The notes: generated from the letters alone by a model not told the origin. DNA of 32,571 nucleotides from Clostridia bacterium (GCA_045631385.1 JAZQUN010000067.1:1-32571); one strand, 5' to 3'; numbered from the stretch's first letter, positions 2,894 through 26,575 are shown. Translations and numbers: made by a program.

Positions 2894-2922
2894 TTGACAT
2901 CTACGCCAAATAAGTATATTAT
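2894..2922 (+). promoter_or_regulatory. Sigma-A-type promoter for the trpS operon (TTGACA-17 nt-TATTAT)
   Basis: -35 TTGACA at 2894-2899, 17-nt spacer, -10 TATTAT at 2917-2922. The leader to ATG 2956 is only about 30 nt, so there is no room for a T-box. Confidence 0.5.
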
Positions 2923-2955
2923 TAATCTAACAAACTTTTTTAGGTGACAAAAACT

Positions 2956-3963
2956 ATGGACACTCAACAAAAAAAGACGGTTTTTTCCGGTGTGCAACCT
3001 ACGGGCAAAATTACTATTGGTAACTACCTTGGTGCTATCAAAAACTGGAAACAACTTCAAGACGACTACAACTGCATCTATTGCGTAGTGGATTTGCACT
3101 CCATTACGGTAAACCAAGTGCCAGCCGATTTGCGCAAAAACACAATGGATTTGTTGGCGCTATATTTGGCATGCGGTATTGACCCAGCCAAAAGCACGGT
3201 GTTTATCCAATCTCACGTGCCTGCTCACAGCGAGCTAGCATGGGTACTAGATTGCAACTCCTACGTTGGCGAGTTGAGTCGTATGACACAATTTAAGGAA
3301 AAAAGCAGAAAGCACGCTGACAACCTAAACATTGGACTTATGAACTATCCAGTGCTTATGGCAAGTGACATTTTGCTTTACCAAACAGATTTGGTGCCTG
3401 TGGGTAAGGACCAAACTCAACACTTGGAGTTGGCAAGAGACCTTGCTATCAGATTTAACAACAAGTACTCTCCAACCTTTGTAGTGCCACAAGGCTACGT
3501 TCCAAAGGTGGGCAGCAAAATTATGAGTTTGCAAGATCCAGAAAGCAAGATGAGCAAATCCGACGAAAACGAAAATGCATACATTGCATTGACAGATAGC
3601 AAAGATGACGTTGCTCGCAAGCTTCGTCGTGCCGTTACCGATAGCGACACCGTTGTTAGATACGGCGAAGACAAGCCAGCTATCAGCAACTTGCTTACAA
3701 TTTACTCGTTGTGCAGTGGTGTATCTATTGCCGATGCCGAAAAACAATTTGAAGGCAAAGGTTACGGCGATTTCAAGTCTGCCGTTGCCGATGCAGTAAT
3801 TTCTGTTATTGATCCAATTCAACAAGAGCAAAAACGTTTGCTAGGCGACAAGGCATATCTAGAAAGCGTACTTAAAGAAGGCGCGGACAAGGCCAACTAC
3901 CTTGCAAACAAAACACTTTCTAAGGTATACAAAAAAGTGGGCTTTATCCCAAGGATTAGATAA
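2956..3963 (+). CDS. trpS: Tryptophan--tRNA ligase
   Basis: Class I aaRS motifs: HIGH-region variant TGKITIGNYLGA and KMSKS (ESKMSKSD). Overall TrpRS-like sequence (VPVGKDQTQHLELARD). AGGTGA RBS lies 8 nt before ATG 2956, so the ORF-track GTG 2944 is less likely. Confidence 0.95.
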   Translation: MDTQQKKTVFSGVQPTGKITIGNYLGAIKNWKQLQDDYNCIYCVVDLHSITVNQVPADLRKNTMDLLALYLACGIDPAKSTVFIQSHVPAHSELAWVLDCNSYVGELSRMTQFKEKSRKHADNLNIGLMNYPVLMASDILLYQTDLVPVGKDQTQHLELARDLAIRFNNKYSPTFVVPQGYVPKVGSKIMSLQDPESKMSKSDENENAYIALTDSKDDVARKLRRAVTDSDTVVRYGEDKPAISNLLTIYSLCSGVSIADAEKQFEGKGYGDFKSAVADAVISVIDPIQQEQKRLLGDKAYLESVLKEGADKANYLANKTLSKVYKKVGFIPRIR

Positions 3964-4817
3964 TGTTTGGTTACTTGCAAGTGGACAAATCTGCACTAGA
4001 AGACGGTCAACGTGGTTTGTACCAAACTTTTATGTGTGGTTTGTGTTTTTCTACAAAAAAGTATTTTTCTAACAAGGCAAGGATAGCGATCAACTACGAT
4101 ATCAACTTTTTCAACGTGCTGTTCCACAGCTTTACCAATGTTGATATCCAACTTGAAAAGCATACTTGCTTTTTTCATCCCATCAAAAAGCAAACGGTTG
4201 CCACACCAACCGAATTGATGGATAAGCTTTCTGCCGCCAACGTTTTGTTGGTGTATCTCAACTTGTACGACGACGTGGTGGACGAAGGCGGGCTTAAAAA
4301 GAAAATGGCACTAAAAGCCTTCCAAAAGGATTACGACAAAGCAAAAAAGCTTATGCCACAGTTAGAGCAAGAATTGTCGCAAAACTACGCCGAGCTTCGC
4401 AAGTTGGAGCAATCTGGCTGTACCATTTTGGACAAGGTGTGCCATCCATTTGCACAAATGTCGCAGGATTTTGCCAAACACGTTTTGCAAACGGACAACA
4501 AATATTTGCTAAATTTGTGCTACAACGTAGGTAAATGGGTATATTTAGTGGATGCATTGGACGATATTAAGCAAGATTTAAGAAAAGGATCGTATAATCC
4601 TATTGTAAAGTGCTTTGATATCAAAAGCGAGTTGGACGTAGCAAGTTGCTATCAAGATATTTCGTTTATTGCTTACTGCACACTAAACACCATTGCCCAA
4701 TGTTACAACGACCTAAACTTGACAAAGTACAACTGTTTGCTTGACAACATGCTGTACGAGTCGTTGCGACAAAAGACTGAAAGCATATTGCAAAAATATG
4801 CCAAAGGAGAAAACTGA
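3963..4817 (+). CDS. DUF5685-like uncharacterised protein (Cys/His-containing, 284 aa)
   Basis: The N-terminus MFGYLQVDK...YQTFMCGLCFS...INYDINFF matches my recollection of the DUF5685 N-terminal signature (MFGY...Y..YCGLC...YD..F). TAATG overlap with the trpS stop. The family call is from memory only. Confidence 0.6.
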   Translation: MFGYLQVDKSALEDGQRGLYQTFMCGLCFSTKKYFSNKARIAINYDINFFNVLFHSFTNVDIQLEKHTCFFHPIKKQTVATPTELMDKLSAANVLLVYLNLYDDVVDEGGLKKKMALKAFQKDYDKAKKLMPQLEQELSQNYAELRKLEQSGCTILDKVCHPFAQMSQDFAKHVLQTDNKYLLNLCYNVGKWVYLVDALDDIKQDLRKGSYNPIVKCFDIKSELDVASCYQDISFIAYCTLNTIAQCYNDLNLTKYNCLLDNMLYESLRQKTESILQKYAKGEN

Positions 4818-5425
4818 TGAATTACAACGCATATCAATTTTTGGGTCTAACGTCTTCTGCAACTAAGGAAGAAGTAGAACAAAAATACAATCAACTCAAG
4901 GCTCAATATCAAAAGGATCGCTTTTTGCCTGGCGAAGAAGGTAACCTTGCAGCAGAAAACTTGGAGCGCTTGGAAATTGCCTATCGCGACATTATGGCGG
5001 ATTTTGAAGACAAACAAGCCGAGCAAGACTTTGGTAGCATCTACGGTCAAATTGCCGACCACATCAAAAAGGATGATTTGTCCAAGGCTCAACAACTGCT
5101 TGACGAGTGTAGCACGCGTGATGGCGAGTGGCACTATCTTCAATCCATTGTGTTTTACAAAAACAACTGGTTTTTGGAAAGCAAAAAGCAACTAGAGTTT
5201 GCTTTGAAACTCGAGCCAAACAACACCAAGTATCACGATAGCTTGGATAAGCTAAACAAAATCATTGCTTCACGCACAACCAAACCAAAGGATTTGCGCA
5301 CAACGGATGCTCCACAAACGGAAACTATGCCTATGGGCAACGGCACTTGCACGGGCAACGCTTGTTGTGACTGTATGATGTGCAACGCTTGTTGCAATTG
5401 CATGTCTTGTATGGGTGGATGCTAA
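4817..5425 (+). CDS. J-domain-like protein lacking the HPD motif, with a TPR-like repeat and a C-terminal cysteine string
   Basis: NAYQFLGLTSSATKEEVEQKYNQLKAQYQKDRF aligns with J-domain helices I-II, but HPD is replaced by QKD. There is a TPR-like stretch (EWHYLQSIVFYKNNWFLESKKQLEFALKLEPNN). The last 27 aa, GTCTGNACCDCMMCNACCNCMSCMGGC, contain 10 Cys. TGATG overlap with the upstream gene. Confidence 0.85.
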   Translation: MNYNAYQFLGLTSSATKEEVEQKYNQLKAQYQKDRFLPGEEGNLAAENLERLEIAYRDIMADFEDKQAEQDFGSIYGQIADHIKKDDLSKAQQLLDECSTRDGEWHYLQSIVFYKNNWFLESKKQLEFALKLEPNNTKYHDSLDKLNKIIASRTTKPKDLRTTDAPQTETMPMGNGTCTGNACCDCMMCNACCNCMSCMGGC

Positions 5426-5429
5426 GCCT

Positions 5430-5978
5430 ATGAACAAAACCAAACTTGTTGCTCTTTGCGGAGTATGTGGTGCAGTAGCAGTGCTAGGCCTGGTGGCGTT
5501 GTCCTACGTCAAGTGGGTGGCGCTGGCTTTGGCGGTGGTGGTATCGGTAGTTGCTTGCACTCCGCAGATACTAAACGGAAGGTACGGGTGGTATTCTTTT
5601 GCCATATACGTAGTGGCAGTAACGGTAGCCGCCTTTGTGGGTAACGTGTTGTACGTTGCTCCCGTTGCCATATTTGCTATGCCCTTTTGCATGTGGAAGT
5701 TGTTTTGCCAACACAAGCAAAGTTGCAAATTAAAGTTGTACAAGGTATTGAAGTGGCTGGGCGGATTTGTGCTAGCAAATTGTGCTCTTGTGGTATCAGG
5801 GTTGCTAGTCTATCTTTTGATGCCAACTCTTTGGGAAAGCCTAGTACAACAAACATACGTTGCGCTTGCTTTAGTAGTTGCTGTCAACCTAGCGGTAATT
5901 GCCTACGACAAGTTACTCAACGGAGCAATTTACGTAGTAAAAAATGCATTGAACAAATCAAAGTTTGGTCAACAGTAA
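5430..5978 (+). CDS. Small polytopic membrane protein, unknown function
   Basis: About 5 hydrophobic helices rich in Ala/Val, with a Cys/His loop CMWKLFCQHKQSC. ATG 5430 lies 5 nt after the upstream stop and has a GGTGGA RBS. The ORF-track alternative is GTG 5415. Confidence 0.7.
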   Translation: MNKTKLVALCGVCGAVAVLGLVALSYVKWVALALAVVVSVVACTPQILNGRYGWYSFAIYVVAVTVAAFVGNVLYVAPVAIFAMPFCMWKLFCQHKQSCKLKLYKVLKWLGGFVLANCALVVSGLLVYLLMPTLWESLVQQTYVALALVVAVNLAVIAYDKLLNGAIYVVKNALNKSKFGQQ

Positions 5979-5980
5979 AC

Positions 5981-6021
5981 AAAAAAACCCCCTGCCTTAC
6001 GGTAGGGGGTTTATGTTTTTT
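5981..6021. terminator. Bidirectional rho-independent terminator between convergent genes
   Basis: A7 tract, CCCCCTGCC / GGTAGGGGG stem, then T-rich run. Sits between the + membrane gene and - mscL. Confidence 0.85.
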
Positions 6022-6025
6022 AAGG

Positions 6026-6589
6026 TTATTTGTTTACTTGTTGTTCTAGCAATGCTTTGATATCTTCTAGCAAACCTTCGGTAGAGTGGCGTTTTGCTTC
6101 TTCGTCAGCAATGCGTTTAGCTTCAGCTGCTTTTTCGTCGCGTTCCTTTGCCATTTGTGCAATATCTTCTTTGGATTTGCCTTCCTTTTTAAGTTTGCGG
6201 TACTCTTGTTTGCTGTAACCGTGGTAGTTTACAGCGGTCAAGCCGTGAGCTTTGTTGATTAGCTTAACAATGACAAACAACACTAGTGCGATCAATATAA
6301 AGTTGATGATAGCATTGATAAATGCGCCCCAGTCAATATAGATGGAGTTTGCAAGGTCGATAGTGCCGTCAGCTAGCTTTGCAGGTTCGCCCAAGAAGGT
6401 GTAAACTTCGTTTAGGGAGTTTTTGCCCAAGATAAGCTTTAGTACGTAGTTGATTAGTGGCTTAAGGATGTTGTTGGACAATCCGTTTACGATAGCAGTA
6501 AAGGCACCGCCTACGATAACGCCGACAGCCATATCTAGTACGTTGCCACGGGTGATAAAGGCTTTGAATTCTTTGAAAAATTTCTTCAT
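6026..6589 (-). CDS. mscL: Large-conductance mechanosensitive channel MscL (long form with charged C-terminal tail)
   Basis: FKEFKAFITRGNVLDMAVGVIVGGAFTAIVNGLSNNILKPLI is the canonical MscL N-terminus/TM1. A second TM follows, then a Lys/Glu-rich C-terminal helix. Confidence 0.9.
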   Translation of the reverse strand: MKKFFKEFKAFITRGNVLDMAVGVIVGGAFTAIVNGLSNNILKPLINYVLKLILGKNSLNEVYTFLGEPAKLADGTIDLANSIYIDWGAFINAIINFILIALVLFVIVKLINKAHGLTAVNYHGYSKQEYRKLKKEGKSKEDIAQMAKERDEKAAEAKRIADEEAKRHSTEGLLEDIKALLEQQVNK

Positions 6590-11954: not shown

Positions 11955-12962
11955 ATGAAACCACTTGATAAAGAAATTTTGAAGGAGTTTTTTAAACAAA
12001 CTTTTTCATTGTTGGATAGAGATGAAGCTACACAGCTTCTGAAAGATAAAGGCTACATTACCGACGAAGGCTTTGTGGTTCACAAATTTTCGGACGAAGT
12101 GTTTGAATTGGGCGAAAGAGAAATTTGTCCGTTTGATAAAGGTGTTTTGGCGTTGCTTTTTGATATGAAAAAGCACGGTTCACTGGTATGGTTAAATTTA
12201 ATTGTACCAGCAAAAGATGACGAAGGAGAATATCGTTCGTATTCGGTGGACTTAAGCAACAACGAATTGTACAATTTGCTGTACGTAGCATTTGATTCGG
12301 TATACGATGCTGTACCCGTTACTTTTTTGTTGTACAATACCGATATGTTTTGCGACTTGATGTATCAATACAAAGATGTAGAGAGTATGCGAAAAGCATT
12401 AGTTCCAGCTGAAAAAAATGCCTATTCGTGGGCACCTAATGCTGGCTGTATACAACTTTCTCTTCAAAAATATTTGTATTTCAAACCGTTTGTTAAGTAC
12501 AACTCTGCAATTCAGCAAGAATATTACGAAGATTTCTTCCCCGTATTTCAAAAAATGTTTTTGGATGGTGCTACCGAGCCTGCAAGGGTGGTAAGCCTAA
12601 ATCCATTTGTCGTTTCATGTTATTCTGGAAATCTTGATTGCGTTCGCTTGTTGCGTTTTCCTATCAAGATAGCGGAAAAGTACAATCTTCAAGTGGGAGA
12701 TAAGCTTATTACTGTAAATCACTATCAAGCGGGAATTTATGACTATCCAGAAGATTTAATTATTGGCGAAAATGCAACTAAAAATTGGATAGATTTCGTA
12801 CCAAAGGTAGCACTGTTTTTTGCGGAAAACGAAAAATTTTGCAAATTTAAAGTAAAGCTTATTTCGCCTAATAAGTGGGAGCGTTTGGACAAATTGACGC
12901 AAGAATATATCGAGCAAAAGCCGGGCGTTGTCAGCAATGGACTAGACTTTTTGTTGATCTAG
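11955..12962 (+). CDS. Hypothetical protein (335 aa), no recognisable catalytic motif; AT-rich gene
   Basis: Long ORF with a GAGAGGA RBS starting 11 nt after the mtnN stop. No Walker, HExxH, HNH or PLD-type motifs seen. Its composition is clearly more AT-rich than its neighbours. Confidence 0.75.
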   Translation: MKPLDKEILKEFFKQTFSLLDRDEATQLLKDKGYITDEGFVVHKFSDEVFELGEREICPFDKGVLALLFDMKKHGSLVWLNLIVPAKDDEGEYRSYSVDLSNNELYNLLYVAFDSVYDAVPVTFLLYNTDMFCDLMYQYKDVESMRKALVPAEKNAYSWAPNAGCIQLSLQKYLYFKPFVKYNSAIQQEYYEDFFPVFQKMFLDGATEPARVVSLNPFVVSCYSGNLDCVRLLRFPIKIAEKYNLQVGDKLITVNHYQAGIYDYPEDLIIGENATKNWIDFVPKVALFFAENEKFCKFKVKLISPNKWERLDKLTQEYIEQKPGVVSNGLDFLLI

Positions 12963-12972
12963 GGGGTACGCC

Positions 12973-13410
12973 GTGTTTGGAAGAGTTAAAAAATTAAGAC
13001 AGCAAGTCTTAAACTTTTTGAAAGAAAAAGATAAAATTGACGAAAGAGAGCTGTTTATTGGATGTTCGTCTTTGCGATGTGTACCATTGTTTCCAAATCA
13101 AAAGGAGCGAGTAGAAGATAAACTCCCCGATGACTATTTGATGAGTCTTAAGGGCGAGTATTTGCATTTTTATGCAACTTCACTTCCCGATGTTTCTGTA
13201 CGTTGTTACATGGGGCGTATCAATATCAATCGTTTGGAGTTTGTACCCAAAAATACAAATGAAAAGGTAACTTATCGTTTCAAGTTGACATTGTTAGATG
13301 GGGGAATCGCTTCGTTATATGTTGTCACTTATGACAAAAAGTCAATGCTAAAGTTGTTGGACATTATTGAAAAAACTAAAAGTAAATCAAAACAACAGGA
13401 TAAATTATGA
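12973..13410 (+). CDS. Hypothetical protein (145 aa); beta-rich core plus C-terminal helix, possibly PH-like
   Basis: GTG start 6 nt after an AGGGGG RBS. Its stop overlaps the next gene's ATG (ATGA at 13407-13410). The PH-like idea rests only on the strand/helix pattern (YLHFYATS...VTYRFKLTLLDGGIASLYVV...MLKLLDIIEK). Confidence 0.65.
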   Translation: MFGRVKKLRQQVLNFLKEKDKIDERELFIGCSSLRCVPLFPNQKERVEDKLPDDYLMSLKGEYLHFYATSLPDVSVRCYMGRININRLEFVPKNTNEKVTYRFKLTLLDGGIASLYVVTYDKKSMLKLLDIIEKTKSKSKQQDKL

Positions 13411-14603
13411 GCGAAAAGACAAAAGTTGCCGTTGTATCGGCAAGCGAGTACGAGCAAGGTCAAATTGACGTTGCAGTAGACAACTTAATAAATCAACTTG
13501 GTGGCATGGAAGCCTTTGTTCCACAAGGCGCAAAAGTGCTTATCAAGGCAAACTTGGTGAGAGATATGTCACCAGATCAAGCTGGCACAACACACCCTAC
13601 CGTTATCATTGCGTTAGTTAAACTGCTAGAAAAACTTGGCGCAAAGGTTGTAGTGGGCGACAGTAGTGGCGGTGCGTACACCAAGGGCTACATGAACGTT
13701 GTCTACAACAAATGCAAGATGACGGACGTTGCCAAGGCTACAAGCGCAACTCTCAACGAAGACTTTGATTTTCAACGTGCCGAAATTGGTGGTGTAAAGA
13801 TCAAAAACGTAGATATATGCAACAGCTTTTTCAACGCCGACGTAGTAATCAACGTAGGTAAGCTTAAGACGCACTCCTTTACAGGCTACAGCGGAGCGGT
13901 AAAAAACAACTACGGTTTGCTCCCAGGACTAGTCAAGGTAGAAATTCACAGCCGTTTCCCTGATTTGTGGGATTTTTGCGATGCTTTGGTGGATATCGAG
14001 CAGTTTTCTAGCCAAAAGGTGGTGCTAAACGTAATTGATGCAGTAATCGGTATGGAAGGGGCAGGCCCAACCAACGGCAAGCCAAAGCATATCGGCAAAC
14101 TTATTGCATCTGCTAACCCATATCTTTGTGACGTGGTGGCAGTAAGTTTGTTTGACGATCCGTTTGCTCAACCGCTTTTGCAAAAGGCAGTAGAGCGTGG
14201 CATGTTGGATAAGGAATTGACCAACCTAGACTTTGATCTGGACAGTCTAAAACCCGACTATATGGCGGATTTTGACAGGGTAGAAGTTGTATCTACCAAC
14301 ACCTTTTTGAACATGCCAAAGTGGATGAAGCGTCTTGCAAAGAGATACCTTACTCCAAAGGTAAAAATCAACAAAAAGCGTTGCAAGGCGTGTCGCAAAT
14401 GTGCCGACCATTGTCCCGCAAAGGCTATTACTATTGAAAAACTTGCCAAAGTCAACCAAAAGGATTGTATTAGATGTTTTTGTTGTCAAGAGTTGTGTCC
14501 GTTTGACGCAGTCAAGCTCAAAAAATCTTGGATATATCGCCTAATTCGTGCGCTTTCTCACACCAAACGCAAAAAAGACGGAAGTGTTGAAACAGTTGAC
14601 TAA
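13407..14603 (+). CDS. DUF362 domain protein with C-terminal 2x[4Fe-4S] ferredoxin domain
   Basis: DUF362-like N-terminal body (VLIKANLV, LKTHSFTGYSGAVKNNYG, VIDAVIGMEGAGP). The C-terminus has CKACRKCADHCP and CIRCFCCQELCP cluster motifs. Confidence 0.85.
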   Translation: MSEKTKVAVVSASEYEQGQIDVAVDNLINQLGGMEAFVPQGAKVLIKANLVRDMSPDQAGTTHPTVIIALVKLLEKLGAKVVVGDSSGGAYTKGYMNVVYNKCKMTDVAKATSATLNEDFDFQRAEIGGVKIKNVDICNSFFNADVVINVGKLKTHSFTGYSGAVKNNYGLLPGLVKVEIHSRFPDLWDFCDALVDIEQFSSQKVVLNVIDAVIGMEGAGPTNGKPKHIGKLIASANPYLCDVVAVSLFDDPFAQPLLQKAVERGMLDKELTNLDFDLDSLKPDYMADFDRVEVVSTNTFLNMPKWMKRLAKRYLTPKVKINKKRCKACRKCADHCPAKAITIEKLAKVNQKDCIRCFCCQELCPFDAVKLKKSWIYRLIRALSHTKRKKDGSVETVD

Positions 14604-20713: not shown

Positions 20714-21244
20714 ATGAAAAAACTAATGGTATTATTAATGGCAATGTTGCTAGTGGTGTCTACCTGCTTGATGGCAGGTTGTGGTGCTACAAATGCTTGC
20801 AAGGCCGTAACAAGAGCCCTAACTCAATATGACGGTCAATATAGCAACTCAACTTTGCAACAAGACGAGTATCAAAACGTAGACGTTGCATTGTATACAA
20901 GTGGCAAGACTCTTATTTTCCACGCACGTTTGGATTCCAACGTTTTGATCATGATTCACATATCTAAAAATGGCGAAGAAGTTTTCTTTGCCTGTGACGA
21001 TTCGGCATCCAAAACGTATGTTACGATTGCTTGTGACGATGATTTTGAAGTGGAATATGTTAGCGTGTACAACAAGCCAGATGAGACTACCCACGAGTTG
21101 ATTTCTAAAAACGATGCAAAGTACGACCAAGTTTTGCAAAGCGCTCAAAACCACATGGCTAATGCTGCTGGCTACTTTGATAAGGTTGTTTGTCAATTGA
21201 CAAATGGTCAGTTTTGCAGTATCCGTCAATTTTTGGACGACTAA
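20714..21244 (+). CDS. Putative lipoprotein (176 aa)
   Basis: Signal peptide MKKLMVLLMAMLLVVSTCLMAGC with lipobox LMAGC. GGGGG RBS. No family recognised. Confidence 0.75.
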   Translation: MKKLMVLLMAMLLVVSTCLMAGCGATNACKAVTRALTQYDGQYSNSTLQQDEYQNVDVALYTSGKTLIFHARLDSNVLIMIHISKNGEEVFFACDDSASKTYVTIACDDDFEVEYVSVYNKPDETTHELISKNDAKYDQVLQSAQNHMANAAGYFDKVVCQLTNGQFCSIRQFLDD

Positions 21245-21618: not shown

Positions 21619-21700
21619 AGCGTACTCCTAAAAAATAATATACACTAATATTTATATGACGGCATATAATGTATTGATTACAAAAAATGGGGGATGGCGG

Positions 21701-22159
21701 ATGAATTTAACAACGGTTGCCTTGGCATTGCTTGCTTTTAAATTATTAAGTGGCAAGCCTTCTTCCAGCAAGGCAGAGCAACCCAAGGTGGATTTTGGCA
21801 GTTTTTTGAATGAAGACACACAAAATTTGCTGTCGTGTGTAAACAAGCTGCAAGACAAATCCCTTTCGCAAGAAGACAAAACAAGTGCAATATTTGCCTT
21901 GATTACCAACCCTGCAGTGATGAGCATTTTGTCTAATCTTTCACCCAACGGAAGTCAAAATAACGATGCCACAAGCAACAGCCCGCCAACCCAAACCGAC
22001 ATACAGCAAAACTGCCGCCAAAACGACGAAGGCTACACCTTTGAAACCCCATCGGCCGAAGCCGAGCAAGCCTTTGAGCCTATCAAAAACATTGCCGGCG
22101 TAGAAGTGAGCCACAAATTGTATCACTTGTACGATAATTGGTACGCCAAGAAGCACTAA
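21701..22159 (+). CDS. Hypothetical secreted or membrane-anchored protein (152 aa)
   Basis: Likely start is ATG 21701 after a GGGGGA RBS. N-terminal hydrophobic segment NLTTVALALLAFKLLSG, then a low-complexity Ser/Asn/Gln middle. The stop codon lies inside repeat copy 1. Confidence 0.6.
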   Translation: MNLTTVALALLAFKLLSGKPSSSKAEQPKVDFGSFLNEDTQNLLSCVNKLQDKSLSQEDKTSAIFALITNPAVMSILSNLSPNGSQNNDATSNSPPTQTDIQQNCRQNDEGYTFETPSAEAEQAFEPIKNIAGVEVSHKLYHLYDNWYAKKH

Positions 22160-22564: not shown

Positions 22565-23050
22565 TTATCCTTCTATTTTTACAAGATCTTTAAAGTCTAC
22601 AGAAACTAAGCCGTCAAAATTGGCTGTTGTCGTGCCAAAGTCCACCAAAATGCTACCATTTGTTGCCCTGCCTAGTGCAACAACACCGCGGCTGCCCTTG
22701 TGTAAACCAAATTTGCTGTAGCGGTCGTTTTCTACAATCAACTCAACAATGTCACACTCGGCAAAAGGCATGCTGTCAAAGGTTGTTTTTGATTCAAAGA
22801 TTTTGACGTTTTCCGCTACGTACTGCACAAGTTGGCTGCTTAGTTCCGTAGGCAAAACCATATCCGTTGCCTCTACGTCGGCAACGTCAATGGTTGCAAT
22901 CAAGTAATCCCCGTAATTGTTTTCGTTAAAAAACAAAACCAACGCTTTGTCTCCCTTTGTTTGCAAAAGTAACCCCAACAAACCAACGCTTAGCCCCAAA
23001 GCTTTGCAATTGCTATTAAGTTGTTTAAGTTTAACTACGGTAAAAGTCAT
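22565..23050 (-). CDS. Tandem DUF4926-like protein (162 aa from ATG 23050)
   Basis: Two similar modules: VVKLKQLNSNCKALGLSVGLLGLLLQTKGDKALVLFF...IDVADVE and CDIVELIVENDRYSKFGLHKGSRGVVALGRATNGSILVDF...VSVDFKDLVKI. GGAGG RBS lies 9 nt before ATG 23050; the track start 23101 is less likely. Confidence 0.65.
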   Translation of the reverse strand: MTFTVVKLKQLNSNCKALGLSVGLLGLLLQTKGDKALVLFFNENNYGDYLIATIDVADVEATDMVLPTELSSQLVQYVAENVKIFESKTTFDSMPFAECDIVELIVENDRYSKFGLHKGSRGVVALGRATNGSILVDFGTTTANFDGLVSVDFKDLVKIEG

Positions 23051-23116
23051 TACATCCAACCTCCAAATGGTGTGGTGTTTCTTCTGCAAAATAGCAACCA
23101 TCTAACTACTAAACAT

Positions 23117-25303: not shown

Positions 25304-26575
25304 ATGAGTAACGACAAAAAAGATACTACAAGCAGTACTGCTAGTAAAAAAAGTTCTGCTAATAAAACCACTCAAAACAATGGCGTAAATGCTACAAACA
25401 ACGCAACGGTGGTGGCTCAATCCACCAAAAACAAGGCAAAAACTATTGCAATAGTGGGTGTTGTTCTGCTAGTGGCGTTGTTGGGATTTTGGTCTATTAG
25501 GTACTTTGTTCAACAAAGTGCCCAACCGCAAGCAACTTTGCAGGGCGAAACGGCAATGCGTATGGGGCAAAGTCAAGTGCTAACCTTTGACAGCCAACAA
25601 ATCAAGCGTGGTCAAACGGTTTGCTGGTACGTCAACGGCGAAAGGGTGTACTGCCAAAAGTACGATGGTAGGGCATTGAAATATAGATACTCTCCTGCTC
25701 AACAGGGTGTAGACCACATCCGCGTAGACGTTGCGGGCAAAACGTACAAAAGCATGGACGTATCCGTAGGCAAAATCTTGGCAACGGTGACAGTCAACAA
25801 CGTTGTTGCAACCTACGGCGAAGATATTCCAGAGTTTAGCTACACGGTAGAAGGCGCAGATCAACAAGAATTGCCAAACTGTCGCATATATGTGGAAGAC
25901 AAGCCGACGCAGGTGGGCATTTATCCCATCAAATTTGCTTGTGACGAGTGCCAAAACTGTGACTTTGCTGTAACTGAAGGCACATTGGAAATTGTTCCAC
26001 GCACGCTCACACTTACGGGCGAATTTGCAAAAGTGTACGACGGCACAAACACCATCGGACTAGAAGAAATTAGTCTTGACGGCGTTTTGAAGGGCGACGA
26101 CGTGTACATTTGGACGGATACCATTGCCTACTTTGACAACAAAAACGTGGGTGACGACAAGCAAATCCTTTTGCCAAACCTTTCTCTTTGTGGTGATGAT
26201 GCAGCTAACTACTGTGTAGAAACGAGTAACCTTTGTGGACAAATTTTGCCCAAAACCATCACCGTAGAAGGTACTAAAATTGCCAATAAGCACTACGACG
26301 GTACAACCAAGGCGACCTTTGAGTGTGTTGGCAACCTAGTAGGCGTAGTGGATGGCGACGTTGTTGCTATCGGCAACTGCCAAGCAGCCTTTGAAAACTG
26401 CAAGGTTGGTCGAAACAAAAAGGTGTGCGTATCCAACGTGTGCTTGGTGGGACGCGACAAGGGTAATTACACCCTAAAGACAAACTTTGACTGTACTGGC
26501 AATATCGAAAAGGGCTACATGGATTTGATACTAAACAAGCCTGATGTCATCCACGGCCAAACAAAAAACAAATAA
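25304..26575 (+). CDS. Membrane-anchored surface protein with repeated MBG/YDG-type domains, Cys-rich
   Basis: Low-complexity cytoplasmic N-terminus and one TM (IAIVGVVLLVALLGFWSI). Repeats carry KVYDGTNTI, KHYDGTTKATF, GDDAANY and GRDKGNYTL, as in MBG (YDG) adhesin domains. Confidence 0.72.
   Translation: MSNDKKDTTSSTASKKSSANKTTQNNGVNATNNATVVAQSTKNKAKTIAIVGVVLLVALLGFWSIRYFVQQSAQPQATLQGETAMRMGQSQVLTFDSQQIKRGQTVCWYVNGERVYCQKYDGRALKYRYSPAQQGVDHIRVDVAGKTYKSMDVSVGKILATVTVNNVVATYGEDIPEFSYTVEGADQQELPNCRIYVEDKPTQVGIYPIKFACDECQNCDFAVTEGTLEIVPRTLTLTGEFAKVYDGTNTIGLEEISLDGVLKGDDVYIWTDTIAYFDNKNVGDDKQILLPNLSLCGDDAANYCVETSNLCGQILPKTITVEGTKIANKHYDGTTKATFECVGNLVGVVDGDVVAIGNCQAAFENCKVGRNKKVCVSNVCLVGRDKGNYTLKTNFDCTGNIEKGYMDLILNKPDVIHGQTKNK

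Follow-up and report, generated by a model that had tools for sequence, protein, structure and literature searches.

DUF5685 proteins with a predicted class-I isoprenoid-synthase fold are paired with cysteine-tailed J/TPR proteins in Clostridia

We analyzed a 32,571-nt stretch of DNA from a Clostridia bacterium (GCA_045631385.1, JAZQUN010000067.1:1-32571; hereafter the window), in which trpS is followed by genes for a DUF5685 family protein (gene 1), a J-like/TPR-like protein that ends in a cysteine-rich tail (gene 2) and a small polytopic membrane protein (gene 3). DUF5685 previously had no assigned fold, function or literature. Our structural model and residue analyses indicate that it is probably a divergent enzyme of the class-I fold, like that of trans-IDS enzymes (trans-isoprenyl diphosphate synthases), which would bind a diphosphate substrate and carry an added three-cysteine metal site. 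The DUF5685 and J-protein genes form an obligate core, with the membrane protein as a frequent accessory. We tentatively propose that these Clostridia possess a native protein S-prenylation system. Here, the soluble DUF5685 metalloenzyme would lipidate the cysteine tail of the J/TPR co-chaperone encoded next door, tethering the co-chaperone to the membrane.

Gene 1 (3963..4817, + strand) encodes 284 amino acids (aa) and belongs to DUF5685, as a first-pass annotation of the window had suspected. It matched PF18937 end to end (E 2.5e-63; 214.5 bits, cut-off 26.7), with residues 1-273 aligned on profile positions 1-271 of 272. Clustered at 50% identity, this large family has 3112 representatives (E <=1e-3). 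We profiled residue conservation in 107 and 132 diverse members with a mean identity of about 30%. The invariant or nearly invariant positions are the N-terminal MFGY, C25, C28, D46, C69, D103, D107, E149, D157, Y194, D197, D201, D205, N212 and N262. Two of the three invariant cysteines form the C25-x2-C28 pair (YCGxC motif; 4035..4046, + strand) on helix 14-34. The third lies in C69-x2-H72 (4167..4178, + strand) at the turn of a beta-hairpin (64-80), where position 72 is variable (His 54%, Asn 24%, Ser 14%). The Cys/His motifs that the first-pass annotation had picked out by eye are thus of unequal weight: C25, C28 and C69 are family-invariant, H72 is a histidine in about half of the members, and the cysteines of GCTILDKVCHP are not conserved.

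The conserved acidic residues fall into two motifs. The first Asp-rich motif, D103-D104-x-x-D107 (DDxxD; 4269..4283, + strand), is located at the C-terminal end of helix 84-106, with D103 in 132/132 members and D107 in 131/132. The second, D197-A-x-D200-D201-x3-D205-x3-G-x-Y211-N212-P213 (4551..4601, + strand), is at the end of helix 180-208, and from Y194 the family consensus of this region reads YxxDAxDDxxxD. D197 and D201 were present in all 132 members, and D205 and N212 each in 131. No second Pfam family was found at E <=5 in the 107 diverse members, which matched only DUF5685, and the longer members contain insertions and not domain fusions. Sequence searches of the PDB, with the single sequence or with the 107-sequence profile, returned only designed helical repeats or PPR proteins, which we rejected as composition matches. 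A scan of viral contigs revealed no relatives. Among tractable bacteria, C. difficile R20291 is reported to carry a DUF5685 protein (PMC9403866). In the literature, DUF5685 was merely listed, with no function described, and we found nothing relevant on bacterial cysteine-string J proteins.

The AlphaFold2 model of the gene 1 protein (pLDDT 93.7, pTM 0.91) is an all-alpha bundle with a single beta-hairpin. Three helices separate the helix that carries the first Asp-rich motif from the helix that carries the second. When the model was compared with the PDB using Foldseek, the 50 best matches were without exception class-I isoprenoid synthases or prenyltransferases (highest TM 0.58; probability ~1.0). 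These include polyprenyl synthases (4jxy/4jyx and 3wjo), FPP (farnesyl diphosphate), GGPP (geranylgeranyl diphosphate) and octaprenyl synthases, the prenyltransferase MoeN5, the sesquiterpene synthase BcBOT2 and the squalene synthase HpnC. As a control, the gene 3 model was searched in the same way and gave scattered matches with E >1.9 and TM <=0.37, which argues that the isoprenoid-synthase signal of DUF5685 is specific and not generic for helical proteins.

The placement of the motifs within the predicted fold is also that of the known enzymes. In polyprenyl synthases, the first and second Asp-rich motifs are on helices D and H, and the positions of the DUF5685 motifs agree with this. Likewise, in trans-IDS and in squalene/phytoene synthases the two Asp motifs are at helix ends three helices apart. 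Profile alignment with hhalign, which was not significant and is used here for register only, placed both DUF5685 motifs on the first and second Asp-rich motifs of polyprenyl synthases and CrtB. In that register, the second motif (DDxxxDxxxGxYNP) falls on RDxxxD...GRxYLP of CrtB, which it resembles. DUF5685 differs from these enzymes in being more compact, with 98 residues between the Asp motifs compared to ~160 in IspA, and in having an extra N-terminal part with the invariant MFGY start, the three-cysteine site and the beta-hairpin.

To profile the gene arrangement, we used three sets of loci, and counted only loci with enough flanking sequence. The first set comprises 80 species-level genomes with DUF5685 at 35-75% identity, from gut Clostridia metagenome-assembled genomes (MAGs) labelled Christensenellaceae, Candidatus Fimimonas, Heteroclostridium and similar. 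The second consists of two annotated Oscillospiraceae plasmid/chromid records found by a plasmid tblastn search, and the third of 12 diverse DUF5685 representatives (25-38% identity) examined on their own contigs. In the first set, a J-type gene was directly downstream of DUF5685 in 75/75 loci, trpS was directly upstream in 66/72 and the gene 3 family came third in 56/72 (first hidden Markov model). Both loci of the second set have the J gene downstream, in the order RseC-family, DUF5685, J-domain protein, YicC in Pusillibacter faecalis and DUF5685, J protein, 190-aa membrane protein in Subdoligranulum variabile. In the third set, all 10 loci with downstream sequence have a J-type gene of ~200 aa next, usually with a 17-35 nt overlap, followed mostly by a 170-255-aa protein with 5-6 transmembrane helices.

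In the pooled sets, DUF5685 has the J gene directly downstream in 89/89 loci, at DUF5685 identities down to 25%; this pool includes a few near-duplicates (L033/L034, L090/L091). Such adjacency is far beyond chance, and in most lineages the two reading frames share 1-35 nt. The module spans at least two orders of Clostridia, gut MAGs included. Of the three-gene module proposed in the first-pass annotation, the DUF5685-J pair is therefore constant, whereas the gene 3 family was found in 69/84 loci and is missing in ~18% (for example in L023, L030, L050-52 and Pusillibacter). The proposed coupling to trpS was found in 73/86 loci, every one of them in a lineage whose J proteins lack the HPD motif, and trpS linkage thus belongs to a single lineage. 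Elsewhere the upstream gene encodes a CDP-alcohol phosphatidyltransferase (which we take to be pgsA-like), a prephenate dehydrogenase or an RseC-family protein. The possibility that the genes share no functional link and are adjacent through operon packing in compact genomes gains from this variation, as some adjacency must then be incidental. It describes trpS, but it is effectively refuted for the DUF5685-J pair, as an unbroken 89/89 despite 25% identity and changing flanks is incompatible with chance.

Several neighbors of the module in other genomes are of note in their own right. In one MAG, L046 (CAAGHL010000033.1; L046:3826-5903), a divergent DUF5685 paralogue (PF18937, E 1.6e-22) takes the position of trpS. 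Its end overlaps with the beginning of a radical SAM/SPASM protein (PF04055, PF13186), and this pair lies immediately upstream of a normal DUF5685/J/membrane module. Of the 80 loci, only this one has the pair, whose presence suggests that peptide-modification settings, too, can include DUF5685-family proteins; a search for small cysteine-rich ORFs (open reading frames) near it gave only spurious GC-rich ORFs. In Pusillibacter faecalis pMM59_01, an RseC/MucC-family gene (PF04246, E 1.1e-25; L082:5586-5996) is 4 nt upstream of DUF5685, and ispD and ispF (L082:637-1849) are ~4-5 kb upstream in the same direction. Together these may be redox or isoprenoid hints, from one locus. In two distant lineages, the gene before DUF5685 is the phospholipid-synthesis gene for a CDP-alcohol phosphatidyltransferase (PF01066; L103:2446-2997, with a 3-nt gap, and L096:782-1330). 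A conserved ORF of ~105-150 aa follows the J gene by ~0.2-1 kb in L030, L037, L050, L057 and L063, most of which are without gene 3, and also occurs in L101 (5569-5901). It appears ArsR/SmtB-type by eye in the L030-L063 loci and matches PF01022 (HTH_5) in L101. In L037 and L063 it adjoins a small two-helix ORF with a cysteine-rich end (LCC...). This ArsR-like ORF may belong to an unrelated neighboring metal-resistance operon.

Gene 2 (4817..5425, + strand) encodes 202 aa, and 694 homologues were found. All 10 cysteines that the first-pass annotation had counted at its end lie in the last 25 residues (C178-C202), within the tail N175-C202 (NGTCTGNACCDCMMCNACCNCMSCMGGC; 5339..5422, + strand). 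The tail is conserved among orthologues, as every complete one has 7-11 cysteines within the last 35 aa. In the lineage of the window it is nearly invariant (NGTCTGxxCxDCLLCNACCNCxxCMGGC), and distant lineages most often have CxxCxxLxC[AS]DCCCEC[MA]GGDLIxCC. Other lineages have strongly different tails (DMCGSNLCLPLCCLYSLCPGGYCFFC, CLTFCLTWCCMDMLCSCCCR, GCSCCDMCTAMMCMDMCCGCGRGGC). What is common to all is the cysteine richness and the extreme C-terminal place after a low-complexity linker. The tails end in C, -CC or C-x-C[R], resembling the C-termini of Rab proteins. Cysteine spacing varies from lineage to lineage, and hydrophobicity is very high in some tails (CLPLCCLYSLCPGGYCFFC; CLTFCLTWCCMDMLCSCCCR), which favors a lipidated or membrane-associated string over a fixed cluster site. 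The tail motif was not found in the literature.

The remainder of gene 2 consists of a J-like and a TPR-like part, and this 170-residue portion is highly conserved. The degenerate J domain (aa 1-68; 4817..5020, + strand) has Q-K-D in place of HPD and scored 18.4 bits against PF00226, under the 27.8 cut-off. The family profile nevertheless matched solved J domains in the PDB (E 1.5e-4), aligning 'kyqkDRf' on 'KYHPDrn', and matched the J domain of DNAJC5 with E ~1e-3. The J-like assignment made in the first-pass annotation is supported by these matches. Its description of the protein as HPD-less applies to the lineage of the window, where HPD is absent from all 80 related loci and replaced by x-x-[DERQ]; in other lineages, the orthologues have a true J domain with HPD (PF00226, 51.8-65.9 bits). 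The window protein is therefore a degenerate member of a true J-protein family, and the HPD-less state an old loss in its lineage, whose ancestor had a true J protein. HPD or NPD was found in 0/70 trpS-linked loci versus 6/11 loci without trpS linkage. Loss of HPD tracks exactly with trpS linkage (L001-L080 versus L082, L083, L089, L094, L096, L102 and L103). This distribution points to one ancient loss of DnaK coupling across a lineage that still strongly keeps the J-like fold.

The TPR-like helical region (aa ~86-150; 5072..5266, + strand) is a near-invariant block (AEWHYLQS...NWFLESKKQLE...EPNN..Y). TPR_2 scored 25.6 and 30.7 bits in the Oscillospiraceae orthologues, with just one above the cut-off of 27. 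The window protein matched only Fis1_TPR_C among TPR models, weakly (E 0.13), and the PDB profile matches to TPR proteins were likewise weak. In public records, the proteins of the module are labelled 'DUF5685 family protein', 'J domain-containing protein' or 'molecular chaperone DnaJ', and 'hypothetical protein'. None of the three products matched a defence-system model (PADLOC).

Gene 3 (5430..5978, + strand) encodes a 182-aa membrane protein with ~5-6 helices, from an orphan family with no Pfam match at E <=1 and no NCBIfam match. An iterative search revealed that the genes following the J gene in Christensenellaceae and Subdoligranulum are homologous to it. The first-pass annotation had described a polytopic protein with a Cys/His loop. 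In the window this is correct, with C-x5-C-x-H-x3-C in CMWKLFCQHKQSC, but the loop is absent from the next genus (P0251) and from wider relatives. Conservation in the family is only of a structural type (Pro, Tyr, Trp and Lys), with no conserved Cys, His, Asp or Glu. The AlphaFold2 model is of moderate quality (pLDDT 79; 11 sequences) and Foldseek found no fold match in the PDB. We rejected gene 3 as a DHHC S-acyltransferase (no DHHC motif) and as an ICMT-like methyltransferase, as in both cases there was no Pfam match, no conserved polar residue and no fold match. We also rejected it as an ECF S-component, with no Pfam match for the window protein or five distant orthologues and none among the Foldseek matches of the pLDDT 79 model. 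The suggestion that the membrane protein is a DHHC-like modifier of the tail thus fails, given its variable loop and polar residues, the lack of a family or fold match and its absence from some of the loci. At most, a docking or partner role can be suggested for it.

In the S-prenylation mechanism that we propose, the substrate would be a prenyl diphosphate such as FPP. It would be bound via Mg2+ on the two invariant Asp-rich motifs of DUF5685, which would face a central cavity. A separate metal site would be formed by the three invariant cysteines and the variable fourth ligand. DUF5685 would alkylate one or more cysteine thiolates in the gene 2 tail, and the thiolate may be activated on the three-cysteine site, much as protein farnesyltransferase uses zinc to activate the CaaX cysteine. 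Once S-prenylated, the J/TPR protein would reside at the membrane beside the gene 3 protein. In HPD-keeping lineages it would recruit DnaK, and in the trpS-linked lineage it would act as a DnaK-independent TPR adaptor. The place behind trpS may simply provide housekeeping-level expression for the module. That the tail is modified at all is a tentative inference. Lipidation, one of the three fates proposed for the tail in the first-pass annotation, gains indirect support from the predicted class-I fold, both Asp motifs and the three-cysteine site.

Each part of this mechanism has a precedent. J proteins are prominent targets of lipidation in eukaryotes, palmitoylated cysteine-string protein (CSP/DNAJC5) among them, and protein farnesyltransferase combines zinc-thiolate with Mg-diphosphate chemistry. 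HSP40 is the key farnesylation target (PMC5769771). Peptide prenylation by trans-IDS-like enzymes is known from ComQ, PalQ and ChrPC (PMC13290415), and ComQ-type enzymes modify a residue near the substrate C-terminus with geranyl diphosphate (GPP) or FPP (PMC13290415, PMC5331326). These Bacillota systems share the isoprenoid-synthase fold and two Asp-rich motifs with the DUF5685 model. The ComX substrate gene adjoins comQ, just as the J gene is beside that of DUF5685, a likeness that for the module is one of genetic linkage alone. ComQ-type enzymes belong to or resemble PF00348/IPR033965 by sequence, whereas DUF5685 does not. Those characterized have a Trp acceptor, their substrates are short secreted peptides and they lack a three-cysteine site, whereas the acceptor proposed here is a cysteine in a 200-aa J/TPR protein.

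The eukaryotic lipidated J proteins resemble the module from the side of the substrate. CSP pairs a J domain with a cysteine run that serves as a membrane anchor, a likeness to gene 2. However, CSP keeps HPD and its string is central, while the window protein has Q-K-D and its cysteines at the extreme C-terminus, with no orthology beyond the J domain. The CSP string is S-acylated by polytopic DHHC enzymes, in contrast to the soluble candidate enzyme with a terpenoid-synthase fold in the module. In the farnesylated class-A J proteins (Ydj1, DNAJA1/2, plant J2/J3), a J co-chaperone is prenylated on a C-terminal cysteine, as we propose here. These differ from gene 2 in having a DnaJ-type CxxCxGxG zinc-finger domain and a single CaaX cysteine instead of a 10-cysteine tail, and protein farnesyltransferase, a heterodimer with an alpha-alpha-barrel, has no relation to the class-I fold.

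A number of points weigh against this proposal. We know of no native bacterial protein S-prenylation. The Foldseek E values were only 0.012-0.18, with no match reaching E 1e-3. Comparisons by hhalign with IspA, with seven polyprenyl synthases and with two plasmid CrtB sequences were not significant (P 0.08-0.5), and Pfam scans of the 107 members found no sequence homology to a prenyltransferase or terpenoid synthase (PF00348, PF00494 and others). In strict anaerobes, a site of three invariant cysteines whose fourth ligand varies also fits a [4Fe-4S] cluster. The commonest tail (DCCCEC[MA]GGDLIxCC) keeps its acidic residues and spacing over large distances, which suits a metal-binding structure too. 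The overlap of the DUF5685 and J genes suggests 1:1 production, which is met more often in complexes than in enzyme-substrate pairs. Finally, the characterized trans-IDS-like peptide prenyltransferases all target Trp and not Cys (PMC13290415).

Several of these points would be explained if the tail bound a metal or Fe-S cluster and the three DUF5685 cysteines held a [4Fe-4S] cluster with one open iron. DUF5685 would then be an enzyme that acts on a small-molecule diphosphate, isoprenoid or other, and the J/TPR protein would be its dedicated factor for maturation or delivery, in the fashion of HscB and IscU, or the tail would donate the fourth ligand. We consider this possible but rather doubtful. 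The variable fourth position (mostly His, Asn or Ser), the Asp, Glu and Asp set at fixed spacing among the cysteines of the widespread tail and the gene overlap, with its hint of stoichiometric partners, are in line with such a pair. All organisms named in the records are Clostridia-class anaerobes or MAGs, and the RseC family (PF04246), found directly upstream in Pusillibacter, is by name tied to SoxR Fe-S reduction. HscB/Jac1 with IscU is likewise a specialized J protein genetically coupled to a Cys-bearing partner. However, gene 2 is unrelated to the HscB C-terminal domain, neither protein is related to IscU, and gene 2 has its own cysteine tail and TPR part. The cysteine spacing differs between orders, and the dominance of Leu, Phe, Trp and Met in some tails would be odd in a soluble peptide that binds a cluster. 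Without HPD, the lineage of the window cannot use DnaK as HscB uses HscA, yet it has kept the module. Searches of Pfam, NCBIfam and the PDB also gave no similarity to an Fe-S scaffold or carrier.

A stable complex without covalent modification would account for the obligate adjacency and the overlapping frames. DUF5685 would be an isoprenoid-diphosphate enzyme or sensor that works at the membrane and the J/TPR protein its fixed partner, whose hydrophobic cysteine-rich tail tethers DUF5685 to the membrane and to the gene 3 protein, with DnaK recruited in HPD lineages. A TPR-type interaction domain, a real J domain outside the window lineage, a membrane gene in third place in most loci and hydrophobic tails in several lineages are all in keeping with this. 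Yet it leaves the 7-11 kept cysteines unexplained, as other hydrophobic residues would anchor as well. It also leaves the three-cysteine site without a role, and the loci examined have no product or pathway genes beside DUF5685. We therefore regard this arrangement as unlikely.

Very improbable, in our judgment, is a pathway like that of the RiPPs (ribosomally synthesized and post-translationally modified peptides), in which the J/TPR part would be a large leader or recognition domain, the tail a core peptide set free after its modification (thioether, prenyl), and gene 3 an export or immunity protein. The DUF5685 paralogue in L046 adjoins an enzyme of a class that typically modifies Cys-rich peptides, and ComQ/ComX-type systems do prenylate secreted peptides, but this radical SAM neighbor occurs in L046 only, and the module has no conserved protease, transporter or other maturase. 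It resides among housekeeping genes, is kept in MAGs (one assembled as a 1.1-Mb contig), and the conservation of the 170-residue J/TPR part is unlike that of leader peptides.

In the window, trpS and the three genes are closely packed on the + strand (2944-5978). trpS (2944..3963, + strand) encodes tryptophan--tRNA ligase (PF00579, E 3.3e-77; TIGR00233, 357 bits, cut-off 176.75). Its stop codon (TAA, 3961-3963) overlaps the start of gene 1 (ATG, 3963-3965) in TAATG (3961-3965), and the stop of gene 1 (TGA, 4815-4817) overlaps the start of gene 2 (ATG, 4817-4819) in TGATG (4815-4819), at exactly the coordinates given in the first-pass annotation. Gene 2 stops at TAA 5423-5425, followed by a 4-nt gap to gene 3. 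Of the two starts considered for gene 3, GTG 5415 or ATG 5430, both are possible, and ATG 5430 is the true start because orthologues begin MNKTKL.

A sigma-70-type promoter-like site (2894..2922, + strand) precedes trpS, with TTGACA and TATTAT separated by a 17 nt spacer (11/12 consensus matches). In the consensus scan it comes after the rpmE terminator (2847-2869), and it is likely the start of a four-gene unit. The unit would end at an intrinsic-terminator-like hairpin with a T run (5985..6021, + strand; hairpin 5985-6012, 12 pairs, 7 GC). These are the sole strong + strand promoter-like site and the sole + strand terminator-like site 3' of trpS, respectively, and no internal + strand promoter or terminator consensus was found between them. 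The signals are consistent with the single transcription unit predicted earlier for the four genes. No T-box or other Rfam family matched anywhere in the window, ruling out a riboswitch upstream of trpS. The mscL gene (6026-6589, - strand; PF01741, E 1.3e-31) is convergent with gene 3, and the hairpin between them may serve both, though the scan reported it on the + strand only.

The surroundings are housekeeping in character and include uvrC, an ABC transporter, rpmE, mscL, mini-RNase III, a SpoU methylase, a sigma factor, dnaX, recR, greA, lysS and chorismate synthase, among others. Elsewhere in the window, two consecutive ORFs of 335 and 145 aa (11955-13410, + strand) had no Pfam match at E <=1e-5. 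They are directly upstream of, and overlap, a gene for a protein with DUF362 and 4Fe-4S ferredoxin domains (13407-14603), forming another uncharacterized unit. A 423-aa protein with two YDG domains (PF18657, E 4.4e-33) is encoded at 25304-26575 (+ strand). ORFs of 167-178 aa at 20714-21244 (+ strand), 21656-22159 (+ strand) and 22565-23101 (- strand) also had no Pfam match at E <=1e-5.

The literature contains no description of the DUF5685/J/membrane module, and no known system has such a combination. Its nearest functional analogues are ComQ/ComX, with another acceptor, substrate type and sequence family, and the eukaryotic lipidated J proteins, which depend on unrelated enzymes. Our analyses provide a fold-level assignment for DUF5685, predicted to be of the class-I isoprenoid-synthase type, and define its catalytic-looking residues. 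They also reveal its constant pairing with a cysteine-tailed J/TPR protein, usually together with a small membrane protein. Should the tail prove to be prenylated, the module would provide the first case of native protein S-prenylation in bacteria and a new type of protein lipidation there, and DUF5685 would be the first Cys-directed enzyme of a trans-IDS-like fold. The module would then be a bacterial counterpart of farnesylated Hsp40 and palmitoylated CSP, built from unrelated parts. If the tail instead binds a metal or Fe-S cluster, the two proteins would represent a new dedicated J-protein/client pair. In either case, the loss of HPD across one lineage provides a natural experiment that could separate DnaK-dependent from DnaK-independent functions of the module.

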